Virus record (IMG/VR): IMGVR_UViG_3300027822_000016
Location: 1-55,299 of that record
Reading direction: 5' to 3' (one strand)
Source of the DNA: a virus
Lineage: Duplodnaviria; Caudoviricetes
DNA: 55,299 nucleotides
The notes under the pieces were generated by a model. The model made no database searches and was not told the DNA's origin. It saw only the letters and a program-made list of their open reading frames with translations. Below, one piece after another: positions 6,333-34,260 of this stretch. Within the stretch, counting starts at the first letter, position 1. Each line of letters begins with the position of its first letter. The position numbers and the translations under genes are program-made.

Positions 6333-6338
6333 GAAATA

Positions 6339-6707: not shown

Positions 6708-6729
6708 TGATAACCCCTAAAAAATATGT

Positions 6730-7785: not shown

Positions 7786-7786
7786 G

Positions 7787-8530: not shown

Positions 8531-8549
8531 GTATACCTCTCGCTATAAA

Positions 8550-9020: not shown

Positions 9021-9029
9021 AGCAGGACC

Positions 9030-12410: not shown

Positions 12411-12418
12411 GCAAAAAC

Positions 12419-12568
12419 TTATTCTTCCCTGTTCGAGACGCACCACTCAATATAGAGCAAAAAACAGCCCATCGTGAAATAGGCATACTGTATCCCATAG
12501 TGGTAAGCGAACAAAACAAAACATATCGCAGCAGCAATGGGAAAAATAGTCTGCAGACGCACACTCAC
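12419..12568 (-). CDS. Small membrane protein (49 aa) between terminase and portal
   Basis: Manual translation VSVRLQTIFPIAAAICFVLFAYHYGIQYAYFTMGCFLLYIEWCVSNREE; GTGA overlap with the terminase stop. Confidence 0.6.
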   Translation of the reverse strand: MSVRLQTIFPIAAAICFVLFAYHYGIQYAYFTMGCFLLYIEWCVSNREE

Positions 12569-13875
12569 ACCTCAACAGACAAAAACGATGGAGATTTCCG
12601 CAAATCCAGATGGGCAATCATATACCGAATACAGTCCACACCATGATCATTCACCTTCGTCGGCTGGTCAATCCCCGATTCTGTCTTCCGAGCCGACCAC
12701 ACATAACCCGCGATCTCCTCAACAGTCGAACACGGCTTCCCCGTATTGCGTAGTCGCAAATCACGCTCCAACAAGCTGTCGGAAAAAAAACATAGCCGTG
12801 GTTTTTTATCTTCCGGAATGCAAAATCTCGACTGTACCGCCTCTATACCACGCAATACATCTTTTCGTGCAGGTTTTATACTACGCCGCAAATATTTTTC
12901 CAGGGTTGCTCGTCCTTCCGCGTCGTGGTCTGCCAAAACAGCCTCAGGTATCACCCCATCAATATCAATGTGCTCCTGTATCTGCTTTGCATGGTCCTCC
13001 ACAAGACGTTTCGTACGATAAATCTCCCTATACATATATGCACGCCCCTCAGTATCAATCGCCCACCACTGGCACACAAACGGATTTGTGAACCCAAAAT
13101 CGATCGTCAAATACCGAAGCCAATCAGACGGAATAACAAACGGCTTAATAACATGCACACGCTCATGAAACCCAACAAAAATCGTCCCCTCCTCAGAAAC
13201 CCACCTACCCTCATACAACCTCTCACGACGCACCCCAGTGAGCGCACGCAAATGAGACAGATACGCCTCCCCCTTCGCCGTCCAGTCAGACTTTCCACTA
13301 TCCCAAAAAAGCGGATTATCCTGGTGTTTCGAGTGGAAAAGCGTCGTTTTCCCCTCATTGCACCGCTGTTTTATCCAATGGTGCTCGCTGGAGGGATTTG
13401 AGTCGGCAATGATCTGTTGATAAGAGATCCGCCCATTCCTCAGCCGTGAAACAAGCGTCTCCCAGTCAACAAGCGCAAGTTCCGTTGCCTCCTGCACATA
13501 AATCATGTCATATTCAGTACTGAGTACTCTGTCCGCATTGTTCATCCCGCCCAGCATGACGGATGACCCATTCGCGAATCGGTACTGTGGTGGCTCGACT
13601 GCAGAACCGCCATAGTAATTCAGCAGCCCGCACTTCACAGCAGGAGGTATCACATGTTTTCGCCACGTCACCAGCGCACTTGACGAAAGAGACGCTTGTA
13701 CTTTTCGCACGATAAGAAATCGTGCGCCATCGTTTGCAAAAGCACTTGCGTACAATTTCATTAGGCAGGCGTACGATTTTCCCGTCCCTGCAGGACCAGC
13801 AATCAATACTTCGGGGTCCCTGCAGCCGAAAAGCTTTTTTGCCGCACCCCAGGGTATGTAAGTTTGTTGCACCAC
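12565..13875 (-). CDS. terL: Terminase large subunit
   Basis: Walker A GPAGTGKS, Walker B YVQEATE, DSNP, nuclease motifs IDFG and DHGVDCIRY. Confidence 0.95.
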   Translation of the reverse strand: MVQQTYIPWGAAKKLFGCRDPEVLIAGPAGTGKSYACLMKLYASAFANDGARFLIVRKVQASLSSSALVTWRKHVIPPAVKCGLLNYYGGSAVEPPQYRFANGSSVMLGGMNNADRVLSTEYDMIYVQEATELALVDWETLVSRLRNGRISYQQIIADSNPSSEHHWIKQRCNEGKTTLFHSKHQDNPLFWDSGKSDWTAKGEAYLSHLRALTGVRRERLYEGRWVSEEGTIFVGFHERVHVIKPFVIPSDWLRYLTIDFGFTNPFVCQWWAIDTEGRAYMYREIYRTKRLVEDHAKQIQEHIDIDGVIPEAVLADHDAEGRATLEKYLRRSIKPARKDVLRGIEAVQSRFCIPEDKKPRLCFFSDSLLERDLRLRNTGKPCSTVEEIAGYVWSARKTESGIDQPTKVNDHGVDCIRYMIAHLDLRKSPSFLSVEV

Positions 13876-13884
13876 CGTGAAAAC

Positions 13885-14346
13885 TTACTGCAAATTAGTT
13901 GGGTCAATCCCACTGACCGAAACATGCAGACGGTCGTCCCCTCCCTGGCCGGGAACCTTTGCGTCCGACAGTTCTTCTCGGATGGTGCGTAGAACGTCCA
14001 AGGTCATGCCGAATACAGATGTACGTAGTGTCCCGTCGGTGTTGTAATAGTTTCTGCTACTTGACAGTGGGGCCAACATTTTCTGGTATATGAGCATTCT
14101 GCACGCCCGGTTTGCCCCCCAAAACACTGCTTCCAAATTATGTCCGTCTGCATCGCCCCGTATGAGTTCTTCTTGGGCGGCGATGATGAATGCTTTATTT
14201 TCGCCGTAGAACGCGAGGAGTGTTGTGGAGTCGGTGTGGTACCGCTCCTCAAGTTTTTCAATTTCTTTGATGTCTGCTGTGTCGGATTTTGCCATGTCGA
14301 AAATGAGTTGCATGGCGCGTTTTTCCGGGATGTTGTTTGTGTTCAT
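13885..14346 (-). CDS. Putative terminase small subunit
   Basis: 153 aa helical protein directly upstream of terL; call is positional. Confidence 0.5.
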   Translation of the reverse strand: MNTNNIPEKRAMQLIFDMAKSDTADIKEIEKLEERYHTDSTTLLAFYGENKAFIIAAQEELIRGDADGHNLEAVFWGANRACRMLIYQKMLAPLSSSRNYYNTDGTLRTSVFGMTLDVLRTIREELSDAKVPGQGGDDRLHVSVSGIDPTNLQ

Positions 14347-21818: not shown

Positions 21819-22124
21819 TTACAGGTTTCCCAGGTGTTCCAAGCATTCGTTGTAGTGTTTGGCGCATAGAGTGGCGACAAGTTTAATTTTGGATTCTTTT
21901 TTCGAGAGTATGTGCTTCGCTTTAAAAGCGTGGTCCCCGTGGTCGACACATCCTGTGAATGCACATATGGACAAAAAAGTATTTCCAGATGTACCAAATT
22001 CTGCTTCGTGTTTTATGTGCTCCGCAGGCACCTCGAAGTACTCTGCGATGCGGCTGGCAACCGTGTCGTCAATCTCCCCCGTAGGAGGAGAAAATGTCTG
22101 GGCGAGAATTTCCCAGAATTCCAT
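21819..22124 (-). CDS. MEFWE-family zinc-binding protein, copy 1
   Basis: Likely start MEFWEIL near 22124; CAFTGC...LCAKH. Confidence 0.75.
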   Translation of the reverse strand: MEFWEILAQTFSPPTGEIDDTVASRIAEYFEVPAEHIKHEAEFGTSGNTFLSICAFTGCVDHGDHAFKAKHILSKKESKIKLVATLCAKHYNECLEHLGNL

Positions 22125-22125
22125 T

Positions 22126-22524
22126 TTATTTTTCCTCTTTCCCTGTTTTTTTGTTTGGCCGGAAATCTTGCAACAGGATGACGTAGCCTGTTGCTGGTGG
22201 CAGTGGGTGTGACCCAAAGTACATGAGCAGTTCGCTGAGATTGAGATTGAGACTCCTGGCGAGCATCTGCATGTACCACGATTTTGGGGCGCAGCGCCCG
22301 TGCACCCATGAACTCATGGCTGCTCTACTGGCCCCGGATAGATCTGCGACGTTAATACCCATGAGTCCGTAGTATTCCGTGAGTTTCGCATAGTCGATGC
22401 GGGTATTGTGTTTTTCTCCGCTGTGGGGCGGTGGGGGCAGGGTGGGTACTTTCGGCAAGAGTTTGCGGTCTTGGCCGAGAAGATTTTCTATTGCGATTTC
22501 GGGTTCTTCTTTTTGGCTGTCCAT
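22126..22524 (-). CDS. Xre-family helix-turn-helix regulator
   Basis: VADLSGASRAAMSSWVHGRCAP...LARSLNLNLSEL. Confidence 0.8.
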   Translation of the reverse strand: MDSQKEEPEIAIENLLGQDRKLLPKVPTLPPPPHSGEKHNTRIDYAKLTEYYGLMGINVADLSGASRAAMSSWVHGRCAPKSWYMQMLARSLNLNLSELLMYFGSHPLPPATGYVILLQDFRPNKKTGKEEK

Positions 22525-22639
22525 TTGTCCGTCTCTCCATTTGTTTACGACTGTATTTTATCGGGTCCAACACTTCTTGTCAACAGAAGAGAACAATAGA
22601 CTCGAAGAAAAACCCACTTTTCGTGGGTTTTTCTTCGCC

Positions 22640-22819
22640 CTACTCCCCGTCTAGCCCCCTGCACCACCTGTACCAGTCCGCGTTCCTCGACGCTTCCTCA
22701 ACACGACCAATGAACTCTTGGCGATCCTGTTCTGACATGTTTTCCAGTCTGGCTTGGGTTTTCGCTGCACGAGCGTCATATTCTTCTCTTGTCAAGATGT
22801 CGTCGTTCTCTTCTGGCAT
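22640..22819 (-). CDS. Hypothetical protein (59 aa)
   Basis: Manual translation MPEENDDILTREEYDARAAK...RGLDGE; has its own promoter, RBS and terminator. Confidence 0.75.
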   Translation of the reverse strand: MPEENDDILTREEYDARAAKTQARLENMSEQDRQEFIGRVEEASRNADWYRWCRGLDGE

Positions 22820-22899
22820 TTGGTCTGTCTCCCTATTTGCTTATGTATGTATTTTATCGGGTCCAACACTTTTTGTCAACAAAAGAGGACAACAAACAC

Positions 22900-23041
22900 A
22901 AAAAAGAGCGAGAACCTGTTGAAGAGGTTCTCGCTCAGTACGGGCAGTAAAGGCAACTCACCGCCCTAGATCCTAAATTCTGGAGTGAGGACCCTATTCA
23001 GATAGTCCTCGCCCAGCATCCAATCACTAAATTCATTACTG
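22900..23041 (-). ncRNA. Predicted small RNA A (about 140 nt)
   Basis: TGGCCG-N17-TAGAAT (extended TG) at 23048-23076; two internal hairpins; terminator 22900-22936; no credible ORF. Confidence 0.6.
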
Positions 23042-23100
23042 TCTTAAATTCTAGCACGACCTGCCCGAGACGGCCACAAAAAAAATGTTCCGGCAGACAT

Positions 23101-23166
23101 AAAAAAAGGGCAAGGACTTGTACAAGAAGTCCTTGCCCCGTGTGGAGTCAGTAAACGTATTTACTG
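23101..23166 (-). ncRNA. Predicted small RNA B (about 65 nt)
   Basis: TGGCCG-N17-TAAAAT at 23173-23201; 5' hairpin CAGTAAA-TACG-TTTACTG; terminator 23101-23138. Confidence 0.6.
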
Positions 23167-23223
23167 TCTTAAATTTTAGCACGATCTGCCAAAGACGGCC
23201 ACAAAAAATATTCCGGCGGACAT

Positions 23224-23412
23224 AAAAAAAGGGCAAGGAGCTATTGAAGAGGCCCTTGCCCTTTAAATAATCAACTCTTTGGCAGGTCTGGAGTGCATAG
23301 CTCCGCCTGCCGTCTAGAACCCTTCACAGAAAAGAGACGTACTCACGAAAGACAACGTACCTACCATGAGAAATGCAACGTATCTACTATGAAGTCGTTA
23401 ATTTCTTAACTG
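23224..23412 (-). ncRNA. Predicted small RNA C (about 190 nt)
   Basis: TGGCTA-N17-TAGAAT at 23419-23447; three internal TACGT-containing repeats; terminator 23224-23261. Confidence 0.6.
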
Positions 23413-23467
23413 TCTTAAATTCTAGCACGACCTGCCTGAAATAGCCACAAAAAATGTTCCAGCGGAC

Positions 23468-23601
23468 AAAAAAGAGCGGAGACCTATTGTGGGTAGGTCC
23501 CCGCTCGGCAAGGAATTTTTATGCAGCTAGCACTGCGCTTGCTTCCTTCTTGCAAAACACCTGGATAGACCCAATGAATCTACTCTGATGATTATTCCCT
23601 G
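23468..23601 (-). ncRNA. Predicted small RNA D (about 135 nt)
   Basis: TTGCCG-N17-TATAAT at 23608-23636; 5' CAGGGAAT can pair with ATTCCTTG; terminator 23468-23506. Confidence 0.6.
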
Positions 23602-23658
23602 TGTCGAATTATAGACCATTCTGGTCGATACGGCAATAAAAAATGTTCCCGTGAAATG

Positions 23659-23841
23659 TTATCGGGCTTTACGCTCTTTGTATTTCTCACACCACGGGGC
23701 ATGCTCCCAGTCGTGTTCTTCGTCATCCTTGTCGGATGCCGCTAGGAAAGGTCCGACTATGTATGTGGCAAAGAGCAGCTGCATGGCGTTGAGGATGAGC
23801 CACCACGACACGAATTTTATAAAGTAGAGAAGTATGGCCAT
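23659..23841 (-). CDS. Small membrane protein
   Basis: Hydrophobic N-terminus, charged tail, RBS present. Confidence 0.7.
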   Translation of the reverse strand: MAILLYFIKFVSWWLILNAMQLLFATYIVGPFLAASDKDDEEHDWEHAPWCEKYKERKAR

Positions 23842-23872
23842 AGAGTGTCCCTCTTTTGCGTATAAGGATATT

Positions 23873-24277
23873 CTACTGAACCATGTCGGAAACGATTTCG
23901 TCCATCAGTTTCTTATGTTCATTGGCCAATTCGGCGTAGTCTTTCTCCAAGCCGGTATAAAGACTTTGTAGGTCCTTTAATTTATCCTCCAACTTGACAA
24001 TTGTGTCGGCTTCTGAATCTGCTCCTCCGTACGGAAAATCGCCTTTCAGCTCATTACTTTCATCTTCAAGCCCTCGTATTTCGTGCTTCAGTTCGCTGTT
24101 TTCGGCGATAAAACCACCAATTTCGGCTTTTAGGTCGTCGTTTTCACTCCTTAACACTTCATTTTCGTACTTCAAGTCCTTGTTTTCGGCGGTCATTGAG
24201 CGGATCTTGGCCTTCATGCCTCGTGCTCTCGTGACGGGATCGTTGCTGTCGTATTCTGCGTCCCAGTACTCTGTCAT
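23873..24277 (-). CDS. Acidic coiled-coil protein
   Basis: Heptads ENKDLKY-ENEVLRS-ENDDLKA; first gene of a cassette. Confidence 0.8.
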   Translation of the reverse strand: MTEYWDAEYDSNDPVTRARGMKAKIRSMTAENKDLKYENEVLRSENDDLKAEIGGFIAENSELKHEIRGLEDESNELKGDFPYGGADSEADTIVKLEDKLKDLQSLYTGLEKDYAELANEHKKLMDEIVSDMVQ

Positions 24278-24397
24278 TGTGTGTCCTTCTCTCTTTTTGC
24301 TTATGGGTGTATTTTATCTGGTCAAACACTACTTGTCAACAAACGAGGATAATACGGCAAATAAAAAAGGAGACCCACTGGGGGTCTCCAAATACGT

Positions 24398-24625
24398 TTA
24401 CGCTCCCATCAGTTCGTCAGTGCAGAGTTTGATGAGTGCCGTTTTTTTGGCCAGCTCTTCTTCGAGCTGCTCGGCTTCCGCTTTGAATTCTTGTATTCTG
24501 TTGTTCAACGCTTCAAGGAGTTCTTCAATCTCCTCGTCGGTACCTGTTCTGTTGCTTAACTCATCCAGGAGTCCTTTTGTGTCTGAGTCTATATCTATAG
24601 TGGTACAAATGTGCTGGTCTGCCAT
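24398..24625 (-). CDS. Small acidic coiled-coil protein
   Basis: 75 aa ending just before a terminator. Confidence 0.7.
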   Translation of the reverse strand: MADQHICTTIDIDSDTKGLLDELSNRTGTDEEIEELLEALNNRIQEFKAEAEQLEEELAKKTALIKLCTDELMGA

Positions 24626-24677
24626 TACGTTTTTAAACTCCCGTTATCCCGATCCCACGTATCCGGGATCAAATTTG

Positions 24678-25304
24678 TTATACGCTTCTCGACGGGAGCA
24701 AGTCAAGAACTCTTTTCACTGCCTCAGCGAAAAGATGAGCAACAGCACCCAACTCGATGGTGTCCGCATACATAATTTCTCGTACTCTGACGAGGGGAGC
24801 TGCGTTTTCTTCCGTTGACAGAGCAGTTTCAGGGAACCAAGAAGGTCCGTCTGTATACTCCTCAACCCTCTTTGCCCACAAACTCCTCTCCCAAACACGG
24901 CAATACACCCTCTCGTGGATGGTGCCCCTTGCGCACAGTACAAGGTTTTTCGCCGCGAGCTGCCCTTCCTTTTCCTGGAGAATCTCCCTTGCATCCTGCA
25001 CAGACGCTATTTTACTATCCCGAAGAAGAAGGGTTTTTTCGTAAGATCGTTCCGCCAGTTCCTCACCGACGATCCCGATAACCCTGGAGGCATCAAAAGA
25101 TAACTCCGACAGCTTCTTCGCCTTGGACGTAAGCCAAGATTCGTATTCGACAGTTTCCTCGTAAAAAGTGCGAACCTCCTCTGGGATTGGAGCTTCTGCG
25201 GAAAAGTGTGGAGCTTTTGCGAAAAGCTCGTGTTCTATGTACAGCAGCTCGGCGAGTGCCCGAACGAGTGATGCTTTTTCTGGTTTGGCTGTCTCTGAGT
25301 CCAT
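24678..25304 (-). CDS. Hypothetical helical protein
   Basis: 208 aa directly behind a class 1 promoter/RBS. Confidence 0.8.
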   Translation of the reverse strand: MDSETAKPEKASLVRALAELLYIEHELFAKAPHFSAEAPIPEEVRTFYEETVEYESWLTSKAKKLSELSFDASRVIGIVGEELAERSYEKTLLLRDSKIASVQDAREILQEKEGQLAAKNLVLCARGTIHERVYCRVWERSLWAKRVEEYTDGPSWFPETALSTEENAAPLVRVREIMYADTIELGAVAHLFAEAVKRVLDLLPSRSV

Positions 25305-25448
25305 CGCGTGTCCCTCTCTTTGCTTCCGTCTGGAAATTTTACTACGTCAAACACTATCTGTCAACAAAGAAGAACAAGAGTAGACGAAAAAGAGACTCCC
25401 AACTGGGAGTCTCTCCACACAAAAAGTGTTCTCGCTCAAGAATACACG

Positions 25449-26999
25449 TCAATGGCATGACCGCATCGCGTGCGCGATCGAATGACGAGCAGTTGACCTG
25501 TGAGGCAAATCCGTGACAGCCAGCAGTTCCCCGTGATGGTAGAAAAACATACGTACAATGTCTTGATCGTCTTGTTTTGTAGACCGCAATGCCATTGCCA
25601 GCTCGACAGGATCAACCGATACGTCTATCGACGCTCCCCGAAGAGAAAATGGCATCCTCTGGTATTCGATCTGGAGGTCAGTCGGCACAAGACTGTATTG
25701 TACATACTGTAGTGTATGTCCTGATCGGCTGATCTCCAGGACTGGTCCACGCTCGGAACTCTCCAAAGTCAAGGACAACTTGACAGGCATTTCGTCGTCG
25801 TCAATCGTTTCCGCACGTAGCCGAGACAGCCCGTGCAACAACATTGATGCGGGGAACATGCACGAATTATACAATCCCATCCATTTGTGCAGTTCCGTCC
25901 ACTGGTCGTACTTGCCAGAGTCGTCATATTCGACTTTCCAGTCGTCTTTCGTTCCAAGATTTCTGAAAAACTTCGCCCAACCAGCCCAACCCAAATCTTC
26001 GGGGGACGGATTCGCACTCATGTAAGGATGGCCGGCTTTTAACAGTGAATCCACGGGCACAAAAGTTTTCGGACCTTCGCTCAGAAAGTTGCTGAAATTG
26101 GCGATATTCGCCAAGGCCACGATCTCGTCAAAATGCTCTGTGTCAAGATAAATCTCCCCTCCATCAGGCAATATCTCATCGATACTCCCGTAGAGAGTCA
26201 CTTTTCGTATTCGATCCGGATTTGCCACGAATAGTTCCAGCTCTGGTCCGTATGTCTGTTTGCTCTCGTCCGGCTGGTCGCGGTGGAGCCAAACAGCTTG
26301 TACCGTGTTCGGTGCATATTCCTCAGGGTTTGAGGGGTCGTACTGCACTCCTTCGATCATGCGAAGGACCTTTTTTGACATCGTTGGTGTTGCGTCCACA
26401 TCATGTACCAGCTGAGCGAGTAACCCGGATCGAAGCCCCCGGTAAGGGATGCCTGTGCGTTGTTCGCCGATCAGTTTTGGCCCGCGATACACGAGAGAGT
26501 ATGCAGGATGGGTGTCAATTCTCGACACTCGTATGGAGACATAGCCGCCCACAGCATCAGGGGCAGATGAGGCGACTGGATGGCATCCGGTCGGTACACT
26601 GCTAATGTCGACTGGAGTTTGGTAGTCCGTCTCCGGTCGACATTCCGGATGGAATGTCGCATATTTGTTGTTGTATCGCAGTACTGCAACGCCCTTTCCA
26701 CGATCGACTTTTCGCCCGCAGGAGAAGCATTCGTTCGAGGATACATTCGGTGTTGCTTCGTAGCTCAGTGAGACTTTTCGACAGCCGTTTCGGCAGAGCC
26801 ATCCGGCGGACGAAATAGTCTCTGTACTTTTATCGTGACGGTCTTCCAGGTGGAGTGAATCTGGATTGTTCCAGGCGCAGTGTTGTCGTAGGGCTTGGCC
26901 GTATCGGCAGTGTCGTCCGCAGTCGTAGCAAAAAACGTCGCGGTCGTTGACCACTGTCGAGAATAGTTGTCCAAGTTCTTCGCTGTTTTTTCGTTTCAC
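25449..26999 (-). CDS. Cys-rich N-terminus plus a domain paralogous to 30467..31438 (possibly sliding-clamp-like)
   Basis: CYDC, CRNGC, CFSC...HPEC; shares blocks with the 30467 ORF. Confidence 0.75.
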   Translation of the reverse strand: MKRKNSEELGQLFSTVVNDRDVFCYDCGRHCRYGQALRQHCAWNNPDSLHLEDRHDKSTETISSAGWLCRNGCRKVSLSYEATPNVSSNECFSCGRKVDRGKGVAVLRYNNKYATFHPECRPETDYQTPVDISSVPTGCHPVASSAPDAVGGYVSIRVSRIDTHPAYSLVYRGPKLIGEQRTGIPYRGLRSGLLAQLVHDVDATPTMSKKVLRMIEGVQYDPSNPEEYAPNTVQAVWLHRDQPDESKQTYGPELELFVANPDRIRKVTLYGSIDEILPDGGEIYLDTEHFDEIVALANIANFSNFLSEGPKTFVPVDSLLKAGHPYMSANPSPEDLGWAGWAKFFRNLGTKDDWKVEYDDSGKYDQWTELHKWMGLYNSCMFPASMLLHGLSRLRAETIDDDEMPVKLSLTLESSERGPVLEISRSGHTLQYVQYSLVPTDLQIEYQRMPFSLRGASIDVSVDPVELAMALRSTKQDDQDIVRMFFYHHGELLAVTDLPHRSTARHSIAHAMRSCH

Positions 27000-27129
27000 T
27001 GTGCGTTCCTCTCTTTGCTTCCGTCTGGAAATTTTACTACGTCAAACACTATCTGTCAACAAATGAAGATGGCAGATTCGATAGAAAAGAGACTCCCAAC
27101 TGGGAGTCTCCCCACCGACTCAAACGATT

Positions 27130-27432
27130 CTACGCATACGTAGCAAGCATCTTGTTCAATGCCTCCATGTGGTCGACATCAAGCTCCAGCAACCGAAGTT
27201 CGAGTTGATGGATCTCCAATCGGAGTTTTTCGAGATCGAGTTCCATGAGCGCAGTATCAAAAGCCTCCTCCTCATCGGCGGACATATCCACGCTCTCACT
27301 GAGAGCGACGAGCAATGCTCTTTCTTTCTTGCACTCGTAGAGACCTATTATGATGGTTTTTTTCTCCTCTTCTATCCGCTTTCGGTGAACTTCGATTTCT
27401 GCTGTTGCCGCTGCGACTTTTGTTGCAATCAT
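27130..27432 (-). CDS. Acidic coiled-coil protein
   Basis: 100 aa single-gene cassette. Confidence 0.75.
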   Translation of the reverse strand: MIATKVAAATAEIEVHRKRIEEEKKTIIIGLYECKKERALLVALSESVDMSADEEEAFDTALMELDLEKLRLEIHQLELRLLELDVDHMEALNKMLATYA

Positions 27433-27576
27433 GATGTCCTCTCTTTGCTTATATATGTAAATTTTATCGCATCAAACTGATAATGTCAACAGAAGTAGAC
27501 AGTAGCGCCAATAAAAAAGGAGACCCACCTGGGGGTCTCCACACATGGAACGAGCTGTCGTAGCTCAGGGCCACAG

Positions 27577-28140
27577 CTATGTCAAAATCATTGAAAGTAG
27601 TCCGAGTATTGACTTTGTTATGCCAATCGCCTCAGACACTTCTGCATTCAGAGTATTGGAGTATCCAACGAGAGCATCTGTGCTTTTGATCAATTTTTCT
27701 GCGATGAACTCTGACATTGGAGCTTCTTTGGAAAATGCCCCCTGTTCTTTCATAAGTTCGCGCATTTTTTGGCTGAGTTCTTCCGCTTTTCCCTGCATCA
27801 GAGGTGCAGTATTGCGAGCTTCATCCCCCAAAGAGAGGACATTATTTCTTATTTCGTCCTCTTCTGCCAAGGCCATCTCCCACAGTATCTTTCCGATTCT
27901 CTCTGTTACTCCGCCGATGTTTCGCAGTGTTTGCGACAGATATCCGGCCTCGTCGGAGAGCCACATTGTGTCGTCCATCACTCGCCCATAGGACTTCACC
28001 ATCGAATCTTGCAGTTCCATCTCCCCGGAAAGTGCTTCTTTTGTGGCGGAGAGATTCACTTTGGTAGCCAGTAGCTCGTTCCTCGTAACAAGCAGCTTAT
28101 CTATGATGTCTATAAGGTTTCTTACTTCTAGGTCGATCAT
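27577..28140 (-). CDS. WLSxExG-family helical protein 4
   Basis: WLSDEAGYL, APMS; single-gene cassette. Confidence 0.8.
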   Translation of the reverse strand: MIDLEVRNLIDIIDKLLVTRNELLATKVNLSATKEALSGEMELQDSMVKSYGRVMDDTMWLSDEAGYLSQTLRNIGGVTERIGKILWEMALAEEDEIRNNVLSLGDEARNTAPLMQGKAEELSQKMRELMKEQGAFSKEAPMSEFIAEKLIKSTDALVGYSNTLNAEVSEAIGITKSILGLLSMILT

Positions 28141-28293
28141 CCGTCCTTCTCCCTCTCTTTGCTTCTATTTGTAAATTTTACTACGTCAAACCTTATATGT
28201 CAACAAATGGAGATAGTGGCACCAATAAAAAAAGGAGACCCACCTGGGGGCCTCCACACATGGAACGAGCTGTCGTAGCTCAGGACTCTGATT

Positions 28294-28872
28294 CTAGCAA
28301 AAATCACTCTTCTGTCCGGTGGAAAGCACCTTGAGAATTGCGTTCACCACGCTGTTCACCTCAGTCAATCCTTCGATCAGCAAATGAGTTCCGTTGATGA
28401 GAGATTCTGTGTCGTTGGTCAGTTTTTCTGCGACAGTCCAGGACATGGGGGCAGTCTCGGAAAAGCTTTTCTTCTCGTCTTCAATCCTCTGCATTTCTCG
28501 GCAGAGTTCAGCCGATTTCTTCTCCAGCGCAGGAGCTTTGCTTCTGGCTTCTATCCCCAGACTGCAGATACCCTGCTGCAGCCGCTTTTTATCCGCCCCG
28601 CCTATCTCCCAGAGATTCTTGTCGATCTTTTTTGTTACGGCGTGGAGGCATCTTGATGTCAGAGCGAGGCCACCGAATTCTTCGGAGAGCCACTTGATCT
28701 CTACAAGTACTTCTGCGTAGGACTTTACGATCGTCTTTTGGTTTTTCGGGTCCCAGGAGAGAGCATCTTTCATTTCGGGGAGGATGTTTCGGGCGGTGTC
28801 GCCCGCTTCGTAACTCTTGTAGAGGAGGTTTGCTACGGTGTCTACGAGGTTTTTTACTTCTGAGTTGATCAT
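28294..28872 (-). CDS. WLSxExG-family helical protein 3
   Basis: WLSEEFGGL, APMS; single-gene cassette. Confidence 0.8.
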   Translation of the reverse strand: MINSEVKNLVDTVANLLYKSYEAGDTARNILPEMKDALSWDPKNQKTIVKSYAEVLVEIKWLSEEFGGLALTSRCLHAVTKKIDKNLWEIGGADKKRLQQGICSLGIEARSKAPALEKKSAELCREMQRIEDEKKSFSETAPMSWTVAEKLTNDTESLINGTHLLIEGLTEVNSVVNAILKVLSTGQKSDFC

Positions 28873-29026
28873 CTTGCTACTTCTTTCTCTCCATTTGCTT
28901 ACATCCGTATTTTATCTGGTCAAACACTGTTTGTCAACAAAAGACGACGGAAATAAGGAAGGAAGAGTCCAGTCTTAATGACTGGACTCTTCCTGTGGAG
29001 AAATCAGGTTGCTTAGGAAAGTGTAC

Positions 29027-29623
29027 CTATGCTGTCTTTTGCAATTCCAGTGGAGGAAGAGGTTCGAGTATTTGCTTCATAAGTGAATGTACATCATCTA
29101 CTACATCTATTGCGATTTTAACCCCGTCGATAAGATCCCTCGTACTCCCCTCAAACCACTTCACAAACGTGAGACTCATAGGTTCTTTGCCAGAATGAAT
29201 AAAACTTTCGTCGAGGTACTTTTCTGTCTTTCGGTCGAATTCATAACGTGTGTATTCAAAGTGTTTTTCGTGTGTGTCAGAGGCTTTGTAGTTGCACTCT
29301 CTACCAGGAATGAGGATTGCTTGCAATGCCTCTTCGCTCATCAGCGACTCGTCTAGAATTTTTTTGTCAATTGCGTATGTCAAGGTGTAGATGTCTCTGT
29401 ATATCTGCGCCAAGTAGCCAAATTCTCCGGAGAGCCATTCTGTGTTCTGAACCAGTTCACCGTACATATCTGTGATAGATTTACCGATCGACTGGTAGAG
29501 CGAAAGAGCTATCACAGTGTTCGACAAGTTCTCTTCGCCTTCAGAAAGTCTCTTTTTTGTGGAACTGAGGCTTGCTGCGATGTCCCGGAGCTGTTTCACT
29601 TCTCTGTCGATTATGGTGGTCAT
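29027..29623 (-). CDS. WLSxExG-family helical protein 2
   Basis: Start MTTIIDREVK; WLSGEFGYL, EPMS. Confidence 0.8.
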   Translation of the reverse strand: MTTIIDREVKQLRDIAASLSSTKKRLSEGEENLSNTVIALSLYQSIGKSITDMYGELVQNTEWLSGEFGYLAQIYRDIYTLTYAIDKKILDESLMSEEALQAILIPGRECNYKASDTHEKHFEYTRYEFDRKTEKYLDESFIHSGKEPMSLTFVKWFEGSTRDLIDGVKIAIDVVDDVHSLMKQILEPLPPLELQKTA

Positions 29624-29759
29624 CTGATGTGTCCTTCTCTCCATTTGCTTACGTCCGTATTTTATCGGGTCACACTCTGTTTGTCAACATAGTGGAACAA
29701 GAAGCCAAATAAAAAAGGAGACCCACCTGGGGGTCCCCATGATACGCCCTTTTTGAATG

Positions 29760-30323
29760 TCAGCGTGGAAGCGGTTCGAGTACTCGCTTCATAAACAACT
29801 CTGCTTGATCTACTACTTTTATAGCAGTTCCAACACCTTCGATAAGATCCATCGTACGCTTTTTAAACCACTTCACAAACGGGGGACTCATAGGCTCTTC
29901 TTCAGAATGGTCGCCACCTTCGCTAAAATACCTTGCCGCTTTTCGACTGAATTCCTCGTAGTATATTTCGTGAATGTCGGAAGCTGTGAAGCTGCCTTCT
30001 TTGCCAAGATGAAGAAGGGTTTTTAATTTCTCTTCGCTCATCACAGGCTTGTCCCAGATTTTTTCGTCAATTTCCTTTGTCAGCGAGTAGACGTCTCTGT
30101 ATATTTGCGCCAAACACCCGAATTCCCCGGAGAGCCATTTTGTGTTCTCGATCAGTTCCGCGTAGGCGCCTGTGATGGATTTACCGTATGACTGATAGCG
30201 AGGAAGATTTCTCTCTATGTATGACAAAGTTTCTTTTTTTCCGGAAAGTCTCTTTTTTGTGGCACTGAGGCTTGCTGCGATGTCCCGGAGCTGTTTCACT
30301 TCTCTGTCGATTATGGTGGTCAT
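29760..30323 (-). CDS. WLSxExG-family helical protein 1
   Basis: Start MTTIIDREVK; WLSGEFGCL, EPMS. Confidence 0.8.
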   Translation of the reverse strand: MTTIIDREVKQLRDIAASLSATKKRLSGKKETLSYIERNLPRYQSYGKSITGAYAELIENTKWLSGEFGCLAQIYRDVYSLTKEIDEKIWDKPVMSEEKLKTLLHLGKEGSFTASDIHEIYYEEFSRKAARYFSEGGDHSEEEPMSPPFVKWFKKRTMDLIEGVGTAIKVVDQAELFMKRVLEPLPR

Positions 30324-30466
30324 CTGATGTGTCCTTCTCTCCATTTGCCTATAAGACTATTTTATCGGGTCACACTCTGTTTGTCAACAAAATAGAACAA
30401 CAATTTCAAGAAAAAAGAGCGGGAACACATTCCGAACGTGCCCCACTCTCTACCCAGTCGACAGCC

Positions 30467-31438
30467 TCAAAAATCTGCTTGGCGAAGCACATGCACACAG
30501 CAGCTAGATCCCAAAAAAGATCCATCCACTGGGGAAGAACGCGGGACGTCCGTCACATACAGGTACTCATCAGAAAACACGATACGCGCGGACCCATTCG
30601 GTTCGTTTGCCGACAGTTCATAGTCCGGGCAACTCTCAAGGGCTGCCCGAAACTGTCCAGAGTACGGAACAAACTGCTGGGATTCTGTCGGAAAGACAGA
30701 GAATTCCTCGGGGCGGTACTCGGAAAAATCCATGCCGAGATCGTCAACGAGTTCCCGCAAAAACATCGGGAATTCCTGACCATTCTGACCATTCTGGCCA
30801 AGAGTTAGACAAAAGCTGTCATCTTTGCCGTCAAGAGTCAGTTGCACTGGCTTGTCTTCGCCATATTCGTCAATCAGCTGCATCTTGTCGAGCGTTTCGA
30901 GCAGCATGGGAATCGACATGACGTACGCCCCAGTGGCATCCTCTTGACTGTTTTGCAGTACATTGGGCCAGCTTGACCAGCCGAGTTGATGAGGGTAGGT
31001 GAAATCTTCGAGGACTCCACTCTCGCCGACGATCGACCCGAAATCAATGTCCCAGTGGATTGGCAGGTGTTGTGCTGCGGCAATGAGCGCCATTGCTTGT
31101 GGGACGGGCAAGGAATGTATTTTATCTGCCCCTGGGGAATGGTAGTCCATAAATGTCGGACTATTTATGTATGGCCAATGTCCAGAGAGACGTACAACGC
31201 TCAGCATCTCTCTGTTGGCGGCCAGTATGAATGTGTTCCCCCATTTTTTGTGGGGTGGGTATGGTTTGTCGGATGGGCAGGGACGGTAGAGCCAGATGGC
31301 TTTCGGGCCACCAGTCGTTCGGTAGGGCCAGAGGAGCGTTTCGTGCAGGTTGCGTAGTGATCCTGCTGAGATGGTCCTACGAGTTGGGTTGTCTGTCAAG
31401 GACAGGCCGAATGACAGGGTGGATCGGTCGGTGATCAT
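30467..31438 (-). CDS. Hypothetical protein, paralogue of the C-terminal part of 25449..26999
   Basis: LGWSSW vs LGWAGW, PVQLTL vs PVKLSL, YVTDVP vs AVTDLP. Confidence 0.75.
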   Translation of the reverse strand: MITDRSTLSFGLSLTDNPTRRTISAGSLRNLHETLLWPYRTTGGPKAIWLYRPCPSDKPYPPHKKWGNTFILAANREMLSVVRLSGHWPYINSPTFMDYHSPGADKIHSLPVPQAMALIAAAQHLPIHWDIDFGSIVGESGVLEDFTYPHQLGWSSWPNVLQNSQEDATGAYVMSIPMLLETLDKMQLIDEYGEDKPVQLTLDGKDDSFCLTLGQNGQNGQEFPMFLRELVDDLGMDFSEYRPEEFSVFPTESQQFVPYSGQFRAALESCPDYELSANEPNGSARIVFSDEYLYVTDVPRSSPVDGSFLGSSCCVHVLRQADF

Positions 31439-31479
31439 AGTTCGGTCGCTTTCTCTTTGCTTATACGTCAAAATTTTAT

Positions 31480-31746
31480 CTAGTCTGAAGATTCGGCCTG
31501 TTGCTTCTTTTCCTGCTCCTCGAAGAACTCGTGTGGGTCTTTTCGGATACTGTCATACTGGTCAGGTGGGAGTTCGTGGATGTAGTCCATGACATCCGTA
31601 AACATGGCCCGGTATTTCGCTTTGTCCTGCTTGTCTTTTTCGTTTTTTCTCACCAGCCAAGCGGTAAGAGGTTTCAGCACAAACAGTACGAATAGTGCCC
31701 AAAGGGTGTACAACCCGATAAGTGTTGTTAGTACGAACTTGATCAT
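31480..31746 (-). CDS. Small membrane-anchored protein
   Basis: N-terminal transmembrane segment; cassette promoter upstream. Confidence 0.75.
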   Translation of the reverse strand: MIKFVLTTLIGLYTLWALFVLFVLKPLTAWLVRKNEKDKQDKAKYRAMFTDVMDYIHELPPDQYDSIRKDPHEFFEEQEKKQQAESSD

Positions 31747-31867
31747 ATGAATCTCTCTGTTTCTTTGCCCATAGAACTATTTTACTACGTCAAAGTTGAA
31801 CGTCAACAAAATAGAACGGTACATTTGTGAAAAAAGAGGCCGCCTTTCGACAGCCTCCTCGCAATCA

Positions 31868-32230
31868 CTACGACAGGTCAGCCTCAAGAAGAGACTGCAG
31901 ATACGTTGTCGACAGGTCAGAATCCGGATAGACACGTAGCTCGGGAGTCTTCAAATCCCGTGTGTACTGGTTGAGCTGAGCGCAGGCAGCTTGGGATAGA
32001 CAACGGTAGTGGTTGATTGTGGCGAGAAGCTTCCATATGTCATGTCCTGGTGTGCCAGGTGTCATGTCTGGATCTTGTTCTTCCATAGCCTTTCGATTCA
32101 GAGCGCAGTAAACTTCAAACGCTTTGGCGTAAGACTGGAATGTTTTCACTTGGCGCTTGCTGTGGGCGACGATTTTTTCAATCTCGTTCTGGATTTGTTT
32201 TGCTTGACTGGTTGCGACAGAGTCGACCAT
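31868..32230 (-). CDS. Hypothetical helical protein
   Basis: 120 aa single-gene cassette. Confidence 0.75.
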   Translation of the reverse strand: MVDSVATSQAKQIQNEIEKIVAHSKRQVKTFQSYAKAFEVYCALNRKAMEEQDPDMTPGTPGHDIWKLLATINHYRCLSQAACAQLNQYTRDLKTPELRVYPDSDLSTTYLQSLLEADLS

Positions 32231-32461
32231 TTTTTGTTCTCTCTCTCTTTTGCGTATGTGTGCATTTTACTGCGTCAAACTTAGAATGTCAACAGAAGAG
32301 AACACAGATACGAATTTTCTTTTACTCCCCCGCCCATGTCGACTAGCATGAGTTGGGTACTCGTTCTGTTCCGTTCGAGCATCTTTCTCTCTTTGCTTAT
32401 GGAGAAAACGAAAATCCCACCCTCGTTCATTCGGGAGTGGGATTTTCTCATGTTGCGGCGA

Positions 32462-32641
32462 CTAATTCTGGCATTCCTCGCCTCTGTCATGTACCGTGTG
32501 ACATTTGAAACACGGTGTACCTATGATTGCAAGATTGACGAAAGGATGACTCGACGTCAATCTCTGTACACTCTGGACGTGAGGAGTTTGATCTTCCTCT
32601 TTCTCTTCCTCTTCCTTCTTCTTCTTCTTTTTCTTACCCAT
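32462..32641 (-). CDS. Small Lys/Glu-tract protein with CxxCxxxH-C zinc finger (59 aa)
   Basis: Manual translation MGKKKKKKKEEEEKEED...CFKCHTVHDRGEEC. Confidence 0.65.
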   Translation of the reverse strand: MGKKKKKKKEEEEKEEDQTPHVQSVQRLTSSHPFVNLAIIGTPCFKCHTVHDRGEECQN

Positions 32642-32646
32642 ATCTG

Positions 32647-32841
32647 TTACCCAACCTGGTGGGGAGTGCCGGGCTTATGCACACCGTGACACGTTGGGCA
32701 CACCCAACATGTGTCCCGTGGGTTGGAGGCGTCGTGTACAAGACCGCATTTCGGGCACTCTACACAGCGAGTCTCCAGTGGTCCGTCCCAGCAATGATTT
32801 GATGGAGAGCACGGCTTCGTAGGGTCGAATGTGTTTGTCAT
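32647..32841 (-). CDS. Small CxxCxxxH zinc-finger protein
   Basis: CWDGP...CPKCGLVH...CPTCHGVH. Confidence 0.75.
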   Translation of the reverse strand: MTNTFDPTKPCSPSNHCWDGPLETRCVECPKCGLVHDASNPRDTCWVCPTCHGVHKPGTPHQVG

Positions 32842-32868
32842 TGTCTACTTCTTTGTTTCGCTTACTGC

Positions 32869-33240
32869 TTAAAGTGGAGAGCCACGCCGGTAGTCTTCGC
32901 CGCAGCCTTTTGGGTTGAACTTGATGGGGGGCTTGTGGCGAAGTGCCTCATCCATAACAGCTTGTTCTCGCGGGGTGAGGTCGTCGCTATCTCTCACCTT
33001 GGCAGTAGACATTTTGATATAGAAATTTTCTCCGACGAAATGTCCTTTCCCATCTGAGTGCTTTATTACGCTACGCATAAAAGCGTTTGTAGGTTGCAAT
33101 GCACCATCAAGCTTTCGTAATGCGCTGTCGGACATTTTCTCTACCGGTACATCTGATCTAGTTTTCTTGGGACTCTTGGGCTTGTGCCCTCTTGCCTCTG
33201 GTTGCCACGATTCGACTCTCGATCGTCTGAACAATCCCAT
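32869..33240 (-). CDS. Hypothetical basic protein
   Basis: AGGAG RBS; ends KFNPKGCGE, similar to RFNAEEGCGE in 33343..33591. Confidence 0.7.
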   Translation of the reverse strand: MGLFRRSRVESWQPEARGHKPKSPKKTRSDVPVEKMSDSALRKLDGALQPTNAFMRSVIKHSDGKGHFVGENFYIKMSTAKVRDSDDLTPREQAVMDEALRHKPPIKFNPKGCGEDYRRGSPL

Positions 33241-33265
33241 TTCCTACTCCTTTTAGTGTCCTAGA

Positions 33266-33300
33266 GAGTAATAGCGCAAGAAAATCTTGCGCTATTACTC
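33266..33300. terminator. Perfect 15-bp hairpin
   Basis: GAGTAATAGCGCAAG/CTTGCGCTATTACTC. Confidence 0.55.
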
Positions 33301-33342
33301 ACCAATTACTTTGTTTTCGTCTATTTTCTTGTCTATTCGGCT

Positions 33343-33591
33343 TTAACTGGCTGGTTTTCCGCCTCCGCCAAAATGAACACTCTCACATTCACTGCCTGTT
33401 TCACATGAGTCTTTGGGGCTGTGTGCGACACCGCATGTAGGGCAATCACGGCAAAAACCGTCTCTTGGGCCATACCAGCAACGATTTCCCTCGCCGCAAC
33501 CCTCCTCTGCATTAAAACGTAACTTCACTCTACTTCCGGCATTCGGAGCTTCATTTTTCCGTCTTGGCAGCAGTCTCATCATTTTCTCCAT
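33343..33591 (-). CDS. Small CxxCxxxH zinc-finger protein
   Basis: CWYGP...CPTCGVAHSPKDSC. Confidence 0.75.
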   Translation of the reverse strand: MEKMMRLLPRRKNEAPNAGSRVKLRFNAEEGCGEGNRCWYGPRDGFCRDCPTCGVAHSPKDSCETGSECESVHFGGGGKPAS

Positions 33592-33615
33592 CTCTTGTTG
33601 TTACAAGTTGTCTCT

Positions 33616-33822
33616 TTACAGGAGCACACTTTCACGTGCCCTGCTCGTCTCGCATGACTCATTTGGACTGTGCGAACGACCGCACACAGAGCACTCCCTG
33701 AAGAACATGTTTATCGGTCCGTGCCAGAAGTGTTTTTCATCCTCGCGCCCTTTGGCTTCATCAAATGTCAGCTCTACCTTTTTCCTGGGCATCGAACTTA
33801 TTGCTTTTTGTAGTAATCGCAC
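33616..33822 (-). CDS. Small CxxCxxxH zinc-finger protein
   Basis: FWHGP...CSVCGRSHSPNESC; true start may be the internal MPRKK. Confidence 0.7.
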   Translation of the reverse strand: MRLLQKAISSMPRKKVELTFDEAKGREDEKHFWHGPINMFFRECSVCGRSHSPNESCETSRARESVLL

Positions 33823-34237: not shown

Positions 34238-34260
34238 ATGTCTGTACTCCGATCCTGTTC

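Follow-up and report, generated by a model that had tools for sequence, protein, structure and literature searches.

Four putative non-coding RNA units in tandem among the early genes of an uncultured marine tailed phage

Introduction

Can a lytic-type phage devote a row of transcription units to products that are RNA only? The question is raised by a stretch of about 750 bp in the early region of an uncultured marine tailed phage, represented here by a 55.3-kb window (the whole stretch of DNA that was analyzed). Phage-encoded small RNAs are understudied, and the known ones are mostly single, derived from untranslated regions (UTRs), or prophage-borne. The phage encodes an HK97-type capsid protein, a tape-measure protein, and a PolA-type polymerase whose best isolate match is 28% identical. 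A preliminary description of this DNA had read the stretch as an array of swappable cassettes, in which a repeat is the promoter of each small RNA and the variable part that follows is the RNA payload. Here, we follow up that reading and weigh it against other explanations.

Results

Repeats and promoters

On the minus strand, from 23650 to 22898, four tandem units (A to D) are predicted, each composed of a promoter, a short body, and an intrinsic terminator (Table 1). A repeat search recovered three members of a 77-nt family (23026-23102, 23151-23227, and 23397-23473), which are 71-81% identical to the reference copy and lie 125 and 246 apart. The three near-identical repeats of the preliminary description were thus found where it had placed them, and a fourth copy, the unit A promoter, is a diverged version of the same repeat. 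A second repeat of 62 nt (23077-23138 and 23200-23261, 84% identity) indicates that the repeated unit also takes in the preceding terminator. The 27-nt promoter core, GGCAGRTCGTGCTARAATTTAAGACAG, has three matches in the window, all within the array, against an expected count of 0.00 from 100 shuffles.

All four copies read, on the minus strand, GGAAYATTTTTT, a -35-like hexamer, exactly 17 nt, a -10 hexamer, and then ACAG. The 17-nt spacing is constant in 4/4 copies, and the T-run varies from 6 to 8; an ECF-sigma reading of GGAAC was ruled out because its distance to the downstream elements changes with the length of this run. The -35-like hexamers agree with TTGACA at only 3-4 of 6 positions. 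The three close copies (B, C, and D) carry TG at -15/-14, making an extended -10 element, and this dinucleotide is absent from unit A, whose promoter matches the sigma-70 consensus at 10/12 positions. TGnTAnAAT occurs at eight sites in the window, seven of them between ORFs and one across a stop codon, whereas simple arithmetic gives a chance expectation of ~6.8 over both strands, mostly inside genes, which suggests that the motif functions as a signal and is under selection. The array promoters (class II) would depend little on a -35 element, which would set them apart from the 12 -35-dependent early promoters of this phage (class I, below), and they may instead belong with its other extended -10 promoters, those before the polymerase, exonuclease, and primase blocks.

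Table 1. Predicted features of the array and its immediate flanks, in order along the minus strand
Feature	Position	Strand	Remarks
Upstream 60-aa ORF	23659..23841	-	No family match; no own terminator
Unit A promoter, diverged	23608..23649	-	GGAACA + T6 at ~23649-23638; -35 TTGCCG 23636-23631; 17-nt spacer; -10 TATAAT 23613-23608
Unit A predicted RNA	23466..23602	-	~137 nt; 95-nt body, predicted four-way junction
Unit A terminator hairpin	23506-23474	-	-22.6 kcal/mol, then T6
Unit B promoter	23419..23460	-	GGAACA-T6; -35 TGGCTA 23447-23442; 17-nt spacer; TGC + TAGAAT 23424-23419
Unit B predicted RNA	23222..23413	-	~192 nt; 5' hairpin GUUAA-GAAA-UUAAC
Unit B terminator, bulged	23264-23228	-	-19.2 kcal/mol, then T7
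Unit C promoter	23173..23214	-	GGAATA-T6; -35 TGGCCG 23201-23196; 17-nt spacer; TGC + TAAAAT 23178-23173
Unit C predicted RNA	23099..23167	-	~69 nt; perfect 7-bp 5' hairpin, UACG loop
Unit C terminator	23139-23107	-	-21.7 kcal/mol, then T7
Unit D promoter	23048..23091	-	GGAACA-T8; -35 TGGCCG 23076-23071; 17-nt spacer; TGC + TAGAAT 23053-23048
Unit D predicted RNA	22898..23042	-	~145 nt; two internal hairpins
Unit D terminator	22936-22906	-	-19.8 kcal/mol, then T6
Class-I early promoter flanking the array	22851..22879	-	Drives 59-aa ORF 22819-22640

Terminators and RNA bodies

Each unit closes with a GC-rich hairpin of 12-13 bp and a run of 6-7 T; the hairpins, at -19.2 to -22.6 kcal/mol, are stronger than the class-I terminators of the phage (-14.1 and -14.4 kcal/mol). 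A simple scan found seven terminator-like sites in 22000-24500, compared with 2.5 +/- 1.9 in shuffles, and caught 3/4 of the array terminators, the stem of unit B being bulged; the terminator of unit D also provides the protein-coding module that comes next with its stem-loop. The predicted lengths of 137 (A), 192 (B), 69 (C), and 145 (D) nt bear out the earlier expectation of RNAs of about 140, 65, 190, and 135 nt. At the upstream edge a correction is needed, as there is no terminator between unit A and the 60-aa ORF whose stop lies at 23659. That ORF and another (23841-23659 and 24277-23873) form the operon upstream of unit A, so unit A is also the 3' end of this operon, and read-through from the 60-aa ORF would end at the unit A terminator.

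Folding, which began at the second base (136, 191, 68, and 144 nt folded), showed the bodies to be more stable than shuffled sequences, with z-scores of -2.38 for A (equally good folds in 3/200 shuffles), -1.55 for B, -2.59 for C, whose body is just 27 nt, and -2.94 for D. These scores lend modest support to structured bodies, and the opposite strand folds about equally well for two of three bodies (z -2.23 and -2.78). Units B and C both have a tetraloop hairpin at +2/+4, built from different sequences, and in unit C nine unpaired nucleotides (ACUCCACAC) separate the 5' hairpin from the terminator. Unit B contains a 23-nt direct repeat in 2.8 copies that includes RTACGTY; TRF reported no tandem array in 22898-23650 at a score of at least 30.

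The bodies are mutually unalignable, with longest shared words of 0-9 nt, and MAFFT aligns promoter and terminator only. ACUCCA is common to bodies B, C, and D (p ~0.014, marginal), and a 9-mer is common to B and D (p ~0.05); ACUCCA / CACUCCAGA was nevertheless rejected as a shared seed, since its p is marginal and fold prediction shows it paired in both B and D. The idea of GGA loops acting as a CsrA sponge was likewise dropped, as a count by eye gave ~3 GGA per 100 nt and no enrichment.

The protein-coding cassettes as an internal control

The same early region holds 12 class-I promoters (TTGACA-N17-TAAAAT) between 22583 and 34575, two of which head units downstream of the array (22879, 22583). 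In 12/12 an SD-led ORF of 59-516 aa starts 28-40 nt after the -10 element, behind a conserved GAGAG/GGAG leader, whereas 0/4 array units have an SD-led ATG/GTG frame of more than 8 aa, and this contrast makes the non-coding reading much stronger. A stem-loop of the GGAGACCCCCAGGTGGGTCTCC-T6 type lies ~25 nt upstream of the promoter in 4/12 cases (24389, 27540, 28255, and 29738); at the remaining class-I copies another kind of stem-loop, or none, was listed. The array region does contain mechanical ORFs, the longest of 61 aa, but its earlier description as ORF-free holds in the useful sense that SD-led ATG/GTG frames reach at most 8 codons per unit. Further, no SD-led ATG frame of at least 12 aa was found inside any unit on either strand, and no candidate peptide is kept between units. 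The genes around the array are mostly of unassigned family: 6/10 neighbouring ORFs tested had no Pfam or PHROG match at E <= 0.01, and among the remaining four only the exonuclease match was informative, the others being coiled-coil noise or having E > 0.001.

Relatives, RNA families, and targets

Rfam at gathering thresholds gave no match in the whole window, and at E <= 10 the interval 22500-24000 yielded 16 weak hits, every one well short of its gathering score, the best with E = 0.12 and bits less than half the gathering score. ARAGORN found no tRNA or tmRNA in the window, and none in 22850-23700 at the 100% and 85% settings, with noise at 70%. At the DNA level, 22600-23900 had no match in 50,697 phage records. 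Neither of two array promoter patterns, nor the class-I terminator pattern, had a hit in IMG/VR; the class-I promoter pattern gave three single hits in IMG/VR and 10 single hits in GTDB (unrelated taxa), about the number expected by chance, and blastn of the window against the three IMG/VR loci found no match at E <= 1e-5.

Further searches were anchored on proteins. The exonuclease and the 516-aa ORF returned nothing in IMG/VR, but in metagenomes they led to one 6.35-kb contig (L004), which stops short of the array, and among 5.8 billion proteins the exonuclease has a single homologue, which is 98% identical and lies on a contig of 935 nt. The capsid search found one relative with a 94% identical capsid protein and 73-81% nucleotide identity over the shared region, on a 24.3-kb contig that covers the structural and polymerase sides only, and two further relatives at 43-44%; none of the capsid relatives has the array. 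The comparison of payloads among relatives that had been proposed earlier thus met no array-carrying relative in the collections searched and yielded no covariation evidence. A look-up of RNA data sets containing the stretch listed none.

The phage's own messages offered no clear target for the four RNAs. Their longest exact match elsewhere in the window is 12 nt, at chance level, and the best duplex energies against 85 phage start regions (-38.3, -42.9, -17.5, and -42.2) fall within those of 15 shuffled controls each, so that no complementarity to these translation-start regions exceeds the controls.

Strain variation

Variation in the natural population bears on whether the units behave as cassettes. 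A contig from run X2 (depth 13.1) joins 23197 to 23444 and skips 246 nt, so that exactly unit B is absent. The joint shares 12 letters, 23198-23209 being identical to 23444-23455, and to judge from this sequence the loss of unit B in a natural strain is a crossover within the promoter repeat, in its T-run/-35 part. In X2 and X3, contigs also differ from the window toward the 3' end of unit D, at positions below ~22961. The swappable cassettes of the preliminary description thereby gain partial support from the population, in the missing unit B (X2) and the variable end of unit D (X2, X3). Protein cassettes vary too: strain L004, 91% identical, has six class-I promoters where the window has seven, one protein cassette being missing.

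The retained array of the X2 strain shows 3-4 differences in 497 nt, compared with 22-23 in 1258 nt of coding flanks, a lower density by simple arithmetic (Poisson p ~0.03-0.07). The three located X2 differences all lie outside stems and hexamers, and the only located change in a terminator stem, at 22929 in run X3, turns A-U into G-U.

Discussion

What the array may be

We consider it somewhat better than even (roughly 0.55) that the array encodes four independently transcribed phage non-coding RNAs. At the level of sequence, the anatomy of the units, their lack of coding signals, and the loss of one unit in a natural strain are firm, and the division into promoter repeat and variable payload passes every sequence-level test that was run. 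Each unit would be an insulated transcription unit, in which a T-rich element, a weak -35, and, after a spacer of 17 nt, an extended -10 (TGC-TAGAAT; TATAAT without TG in the diverged unit A) direct a start at ACAG, followed by a body of 27-148 nt and a strong intrinsic terminator with a tail of 6-7 U. Host RNA polymerase would then produce discrete RNAs of the predicted lengths, which may affect host factors in trans, either by base pairing or as decoys. The conserved joint of terminator plus promoter would serve as a portable boundary, by analogy with the promoter-early stem-loop (PeSL) elements, mobile regulatory cassettes of T4-type phages (PMC2839356; PMC4122927), and homologous recombination between joints could add, remove, or swap whole units. 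Several observations count against the non-coding RNA reading: the -35 hexamers are poor matches to TTGACA, the opposite strand folds about equally well for two of three bodies, the four RNAs show neither a long match in the window nor complementarity to phage start regions above that of the controls, the motif common to B, C, and D is marginal, unit B is dispensable in a natural strain, and unit C, with its 27-nt body, is nearly bodiless and could be an empty cassette.

Empty cassettes could also be the general case. The units may be vestigial regulatory cassettes left by module duplication and recombination, with short RNAs perhaps still produced but the bodies functionless spacer or decayed module, a reading that we regard as rather unlikely. 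It would fit this explanation that both module classes vary in number between strains (unit B in X2; class-I promoters in L004), that the bodies defy alignment and share no word longer than 9 nt, and that unit C is nearly empty; the resemblance of the first hairpin of D to the terminator of C (p = 0.054) and of the repeat of B to the 5' end of C (p = 0.064) are weak hints of module-derived bodies, but such hints are non-significant throughout (local alignments, p = 0.054 to 0.87). Further, the class-II promoter type is confined to units without ORFs, so these are not simply class-I cassettes stripped of their ORFs, and the array has kept four strong terminators and intact -10 elements together with a density of differences below that of the coding flanks.

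A bolder form of the non-coding RNA reading, which we think doubtful, takes the array as an 'RNA cassette store' in which unrelated small-RNA cargos are shuffled, gained, and lost as units. A standard, -35-independent promoter and a terminator joint would move RNAs as PeSLs or integrons move ORFs. As decoys or regulators, the cargos would serve host takeover or anti-defence, and they would be expressed after the -35-dependent early promoters shut off. If true, viruses would have a means, so far undescribed, of carrying an arsenal of RNAs that can be exchanged.

Anti-defence RNAs of types already described, namely a type III antitoxin mimic (pseudo-ToxI), an RNA anti-CRISPR, or tRNA-like decoys, seem distinctly improbable. 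Although unit B has short direct repeats, the bodies are structured, and the units share with many counter-defence genes an accessory, strain-variable character, the repeat of unit B differs in length and copy number from those of ToxI-type antitoxins, and no toxin-like gene is adjacent, the neighbours having no Pfam or PHROG function. The pseudo-ToxI role suggested earlier would call for a tandem antitoxin repeat of 34-45 nt with a toxin gene, and it found no support. Rfam includes CRISPR-repeat families, and neither these nor antitoxin families come near threshold among the 16 hits at E <= 10; the anti-CRISPR role, also suggested earlier, found no support in this comparison with Rfam families, which is a weak test of likeness to the repeats of a host. 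ARAGORN, at default and 85% thresholds, argues against tRNA-like decoys.

It is a still poorer fit to take the stretch as a cis-acting DNA element, such as a transcription-activated origin, an RNA-polymerase entry or sink site, or an insulator between early units. The stretch is ORF-poor and repeat-rich, with T/A tracts and three to four co-directional promoters within 750 bp, and four consecutive terminators would stop read-through. Yet every promoter runs straight into a terminator of its own, which leaves no long transcript that could pull or prime DNA, and with two class-I early units further downstream the array does not separate one expression class from another. Elsewhere in the window, 45846-46402 is a far better candidate for an array that binds protein or serves as an origin.

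Least probable by our estimate, and very much so, are genes for micro-peptides or for type I toxin-antitoxin pairs, in which an antisense RNA accompanies a small toxic peptide: mechanical frames exist on both strands, for instance 17 aa (MVGTLSF...) in B and 15 aa over the promoter repeat, but the latter is frameshifted in D and has a TTG start in B, no frame is conserved between units, and the SD-led frames and leader of the coding cassettes are lacking.

Significance

The genome supplies its own control, with 12 cassettes that have a ribosome-binding leader and an ORF set beside four that have neither. This makes the array a clean, testable case of a lytic-type phage giving insulated transcription units to RNA-only products, and the movement of its units by PeSL-type recombination logic is equally testable. 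If the RNAs are real, the PeSL idea reaches beyond T4-type phages and beyond protein cargo, four new RNAs become available to test for host takeover or counter-defence, and a marine phage provides two compact promoter classes with strong terminators. If they are not made or are inert, the region is an example of module recombination that leaves empty cassettes.

Comparison with known systems

The array RNAs have the general build of terminator-tailed bacterial sRNAs of the Hfq type, as each would have its own promoter, no ORF, and a U-tail of at least six, the length that matters for Hfq binding. A second point of comparison is the type III antitoxin RNAs, which include AvcI, ToxI, and phage pseudo-ToxI. 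They too are non-coding RNAs with promoter and terminator, and unit B has short tandem repeats, but ToxI-type antitoxins are tandem repeats of about 34-45 nt, whereas the repeat seen here, confined to unit B, is 23 nt long and has 2.8 copies, and the array has no adjacent toxin gene.

Multicopy bacterial sRNA genes are another parallel. LhrC1-5 are one such set. Others are the tandem or multicopy PrrF1/PrrF2, OmrA/OmrB, and Qrr genes (bioRxiv 10.64898/2026.05.13.724894). Like the predicted units of the array, the genes of such families are small RNA genes that lie side by side, have a promoter and an intrinsic terminator apiece, and arose by local duplication. In these families it is the RNA bodies, seed included, that are conserved, whereas the array units are alike only in promoter, terminator, and the first 5 nt; unlike those of families of the PrrF, Qrr, and LhrC type, the array bodies are not homologous.

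Among phages, ONT-cappable-seq of virulent Pseudomonas phages has revealed non-coding RNA candidates (bioRxiv 10.1101/2023.10.13.562163) that, in the sections consulted, resemble the array RNAs in being short (~90-210 nt), structured, free of SD-led ORFs, bounded by terminators, and of unknown role. Those candidates are described there as mostly derived from 5' or 3' UTRs, single, and scattered, several being confirmed by Northern blot; unit A could likewise be 3'-UTR-derived. The array differs in its four predicted stand-alone units in a row behind a standardized promoter.

The nearest precedent is the PeSL, as portrayed in the excerpts cited. There and in this phage, a sigma-70-like promoter with an AT-rich upstream tract would stand beside a terminator stem-loop in repeated copies, the copies are dense in a region of small, non-essential genes, and recombination between neighbouring copies deletes or inserts the intervening DNA (PMC2839356). 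Here, the 12 class-I and four class-II copies are clustered in 22583-34575 in PeSL-like fashion, and recombination of the same kind is seen in the X2 joint of 23197 to 23444 and in the missing class-I cassette of L004. This likeness is one of layout, known from sequence alone. With this precedent, the preliminary ranking of the array among the best candidates for an undescribed system was too strong. The differences from PeSLs are nonetheless substantial: PeSL cargo, as far as described in those excerpts, consists of ORFans, whereas the four array units have no ORF and ORF cargo is found only in the 12 class-I units; the stems are not of the polyG/polyC type described there for the PeSLs of RB49 and phi1; the phage is not T4-like (HK97-fold capsid, tape measure, PolA-type polymerase); and it has, compared with PeSLs, two module classes, 12 coding and four non-coding, with different promoter logic.

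Phage genome and relatives

The 55,299-bp IMG/VR virus record has an estimated completeness of 83%. Its genes encode a large terminase, a tape-measure protein and a major capsid protein of HK97 type, as well as a helicase, a primase and a DNA polymerase of the PolA type. Among 50,697 phage records there was no close isolate phage and no DNA match to the array region, and no isolate has a polymerase more than 28% identical to this one. The stretch is present in five public runs from five studies, every one labelled marine metagenome, and one of these, which contains 0.97 of its words, may be the sample of origin. A related 24.3-kb phage contig (L005/L008, record G001; capsid protein 94% identical, DNA 67-81%) matches 587-14132 and 49897-52945, running from the structural genes past window base 1 into far-end-like sequence; by linking window-start-like with 49.9-52.9-kb-like sequence, it indicates a genome map that is circular or circularly permuted. 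Sequence and pattern searches of IMG/VR, JGI metagenomes and GTDB returned no relative that carries the array.

Elsewhere in the genome, a unit of 12-13 nt (minus strand, TGAAATTGCTCA / TGAAATTGCCT) is repeated head to tail about 45 times in an ORF-free gap at 45846-46402, between minus-strand ORFs 46399-49254 and 44679-45716. TRF fits the repeats either at period 12 (44.7 copies) or at period 25 (22.3 copies, 87% matches), and smaller repeats in the vicinity carry the same AATTTCA core. The candidate role of the region is that of a protein-binding array, such as an origin, iterons or a centromere-like element.

Coordinates of selected genes, repeats and promoter-like sites
Feature	Position	Strand	Context
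HK97-type major capsid protein	9030-10445		encoded in window
77-nt repeat family	23026, 23151, 23397		array
TGnTAnAAT	14604	plus	before primase block
TGnTAnAAT	20922	minus	before exonuclease
TGnTAnAAT	28299	minus	across stop codon of ORF 28872-28294
TGnTAnAAT	37348	minus	between ORFs
TGnTAnAAT	52840	minus	before polymerase block
Tandem paralogous class-I cassettes	28830-30454		ORFs 29623-29027 and 30323-29760
Smaller AATTTCA repeats	43815-43969, 45735-45757, 46505-46557		

Four predicted ORF-less transcription units

Reading the sequence places four units (A to D in transcription order) in a row on the minus strand, 23650-22898. A repeat search found a 77-nt family there, and a 62-nt repeat takes in the preceding terminator, which makes the terminator part of the repeated unit. 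The 27-nt promoter core has three copies in the window, all in the array, against 0.00 expected. All four promoter copies share, in order, GGAAYATTTTTT, a hexamer resembling a -35, a spacer of exactly 17 nt, TA(T/G/A)AAT, 5 nt and ACAG, with TG at -15/-14 in the three close copies, and every unit ends in a 12-13-bp hairpin (-19.2 to -22.6 kcal/mol) followed by T6-T7. Units A, B, C and D are predicted to give RNAs of ~137, 192, 69 and 145 nt. Repeats, layout and RNA sizes agree with the preliminary description of tandem promoter-repeat, body and terminator units, and as signals the four insulated transcription units without ORFs are very likely real.

The genome's own coding cassettes provide the comparison. 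A scan of 19-39 kb found 12 minus-strand copies of the early coding module, class I (TTGACA-N17-TAAAAT), spread over 22583-34575. The copies at 24389, 27540, 28255 and 29738 have a GGAGACCCCCAGGTGGGTCTCC-T6 type stem-loop/terminator ~25 nt upstream. In alignment, most of the 12 share the leader AAGCAAAGAGAGG and a start codon. All 12 have an SD-led start 28-40 nt past the -10 that opens a frame of 59-516 aa, mostly without known family. Within the four array units, SD-led ATG/GTG frames ahead of the terminator never exceed 8 aa, and the small frames present are not conserved from unit to unit. The strongest argument that the array would be non-coding is thus that the SD and ORF signals of the phage's own cassettes are exactly those absent from its units.

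Promoter type

The array -35 matches TTGACA at 3-4 of six positions, and the T-runs vary (6, 6, 6, 8) while -35 to -10 spacing is constant. The promoter fits a sigma-70 extended -10 type with an UP-like tract; the variable T-run with fixed spacing does not fit an ECF-type GGAAC box. TGnTAnAAT has eight sites in the window, seven between ORFs and one across a stop codon, where by our arithmetic chance would give ~6.8 on the two strands together, mostly within genes. The five besides the three array copies, none in an ORF body, suggest a second, -35-independent promoter class. We infer that the array may be expressed through this class and be insensitive to shut-off aimed at -35 recognition. At 28299-28228 on the minus strand, an extended -10 motif (CGGACA-16-TGC-TAGAAT) with a class-I terminator ~45 nt downstream may mark one more unit, a very short one of ~55 nt, or may be chance.

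Predicted RNA bodies

Folding was started at the second base of each predicted transcript. Bodies without terminators folded better than dinucleotide shuffles, with z = -2.38, -1.55, -2.59 and -2.94 (A-D), and the opposite strand gave -0.64, -2.23 and -2.78, a modest predicted signal whose strand specificity is not clear. A 5' hairpin is an RNA-stabilising feature. Such hairpins are predicted right after the start in B (GUUAA-GAAA-UUAAC) and, with a different sequence, in C (CAGUAAA-UACG-UUUACUG); that of D is imperfect and A has none. A 23-nt repeat with RTACGTY in B (2.8 copies), ACUCCA common to B, C and D (p ~0.014) and CACUCCAGA common to B and D (p ~0.05) are hints only. Alignments made to see whether the bodies are decayed module copies were not significant.

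Searches of the array found no Rfam family or tRNA. For two roles floated earlier, a ToxI-like type III antitoxin and an anti-CRISPR RNA, the searches returned no type III antitoxin layout and, among weak Rfam matches, no CRISPR-repeat family. Neither the genes of the phage itself nor its start regions showed complementarity to the array RNAs beyond chance.

Strain variation

Contigs from four of the five runs were compared with the window. In marine run X2, a 1428-nt contig of depth 13.1 runs from 23197 straight to 23444 and leaves out 246 bp, corresponding exactly to unit B and one copy of the promoter. The two ends meet within 12 nt, GCCACAAAAAAT, identical in two promoter copies, an identity too short for a 31-mer assembly collapse to explain the joint. 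Compared with the window, the X2 strain has 3-4 differences in the 497 nt of retained array (on one piece, 16 of the 17 differences are listed) and 22-23 in 1258 nt of coding flanks, a lower density in the array at Poisson p ~0.03-0.07 by our arithmetic. The located differences (23086, 23142, 23462) avoid stems and hexamers, and a change at 22929 in run X3 turns A-U into G-U in the terminator D stem. X3 and a second X2 contig, visible only as fragments, diverge within D's 3' portion, at positions lower than ~22961, which suggests an alternative 3' segment in these strains.

The coding modules vary similarly. Metagenome contig L004 is 91% identical to the window; over the shared range it has six class-I promoters against the window's seven, and therefore one protein cassette fewer: where the window has two tandem paralogous cassettes with identical leaders, L004 (3113-4000) has one. 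Together with loss of unit B, this shows whole-cassette gain and loss at repeated joints in both module classes. The proposal that cassettes are swappable has partial support from this variation.

Interpretation

Our best reading, at a probability of roughly 0.55, is that the units yield functional small RNAs. The sRNA array first proposed is partly supported: the ORF-less promoter/terminator units stand, and by sequence logic they would yield functional RNAs. The most likely mechanism would be RNAs acting in trans on host factors, in part because no target inside the phage was found. Empty or vestigial cassettes are the main rival, and a less likely one.

Comparison with known systems

Tandem bacterial sRNA genes such as PrrF1/2, OmrA/B and Qrr (named in bioRxiv 10.64898/2026.05.13.724894) conserve the RNA body between copies, whereas the array units do not. 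The ncRNA candidates of virulent phages are mostly UTR-derived and solitary (bioRxiv 10.1101/2023.10.13.562163). Promoter-early stem-loop cassettes (PeSLs) of T4-type phages pair sigma-70 promoters that have an AT-rich upstream region with a terminator stem-loop, are dense in hyperplastic regions, and recombine between copies to delete or insert the intervening ORFan (PMC2839356; PMC4122927). The architecture and dynamics of this phage's cassettes match these, and 22583-34575 reads as a stretch of PeSL-like cassettes in a phage outside the T4 type. A literature search found no description of ORF-less PeSL-type arrays. Because this phage is not T4-like, has two module classes, and carries four units without an ORF where the PeSL cargo described is an ORFan, we would say that the array works like a PeSL array, not that it is a PeSL; what appears new is that, in a marine phage outside the T4 type, PeSL-like cassettes carry RNA-only cargo.
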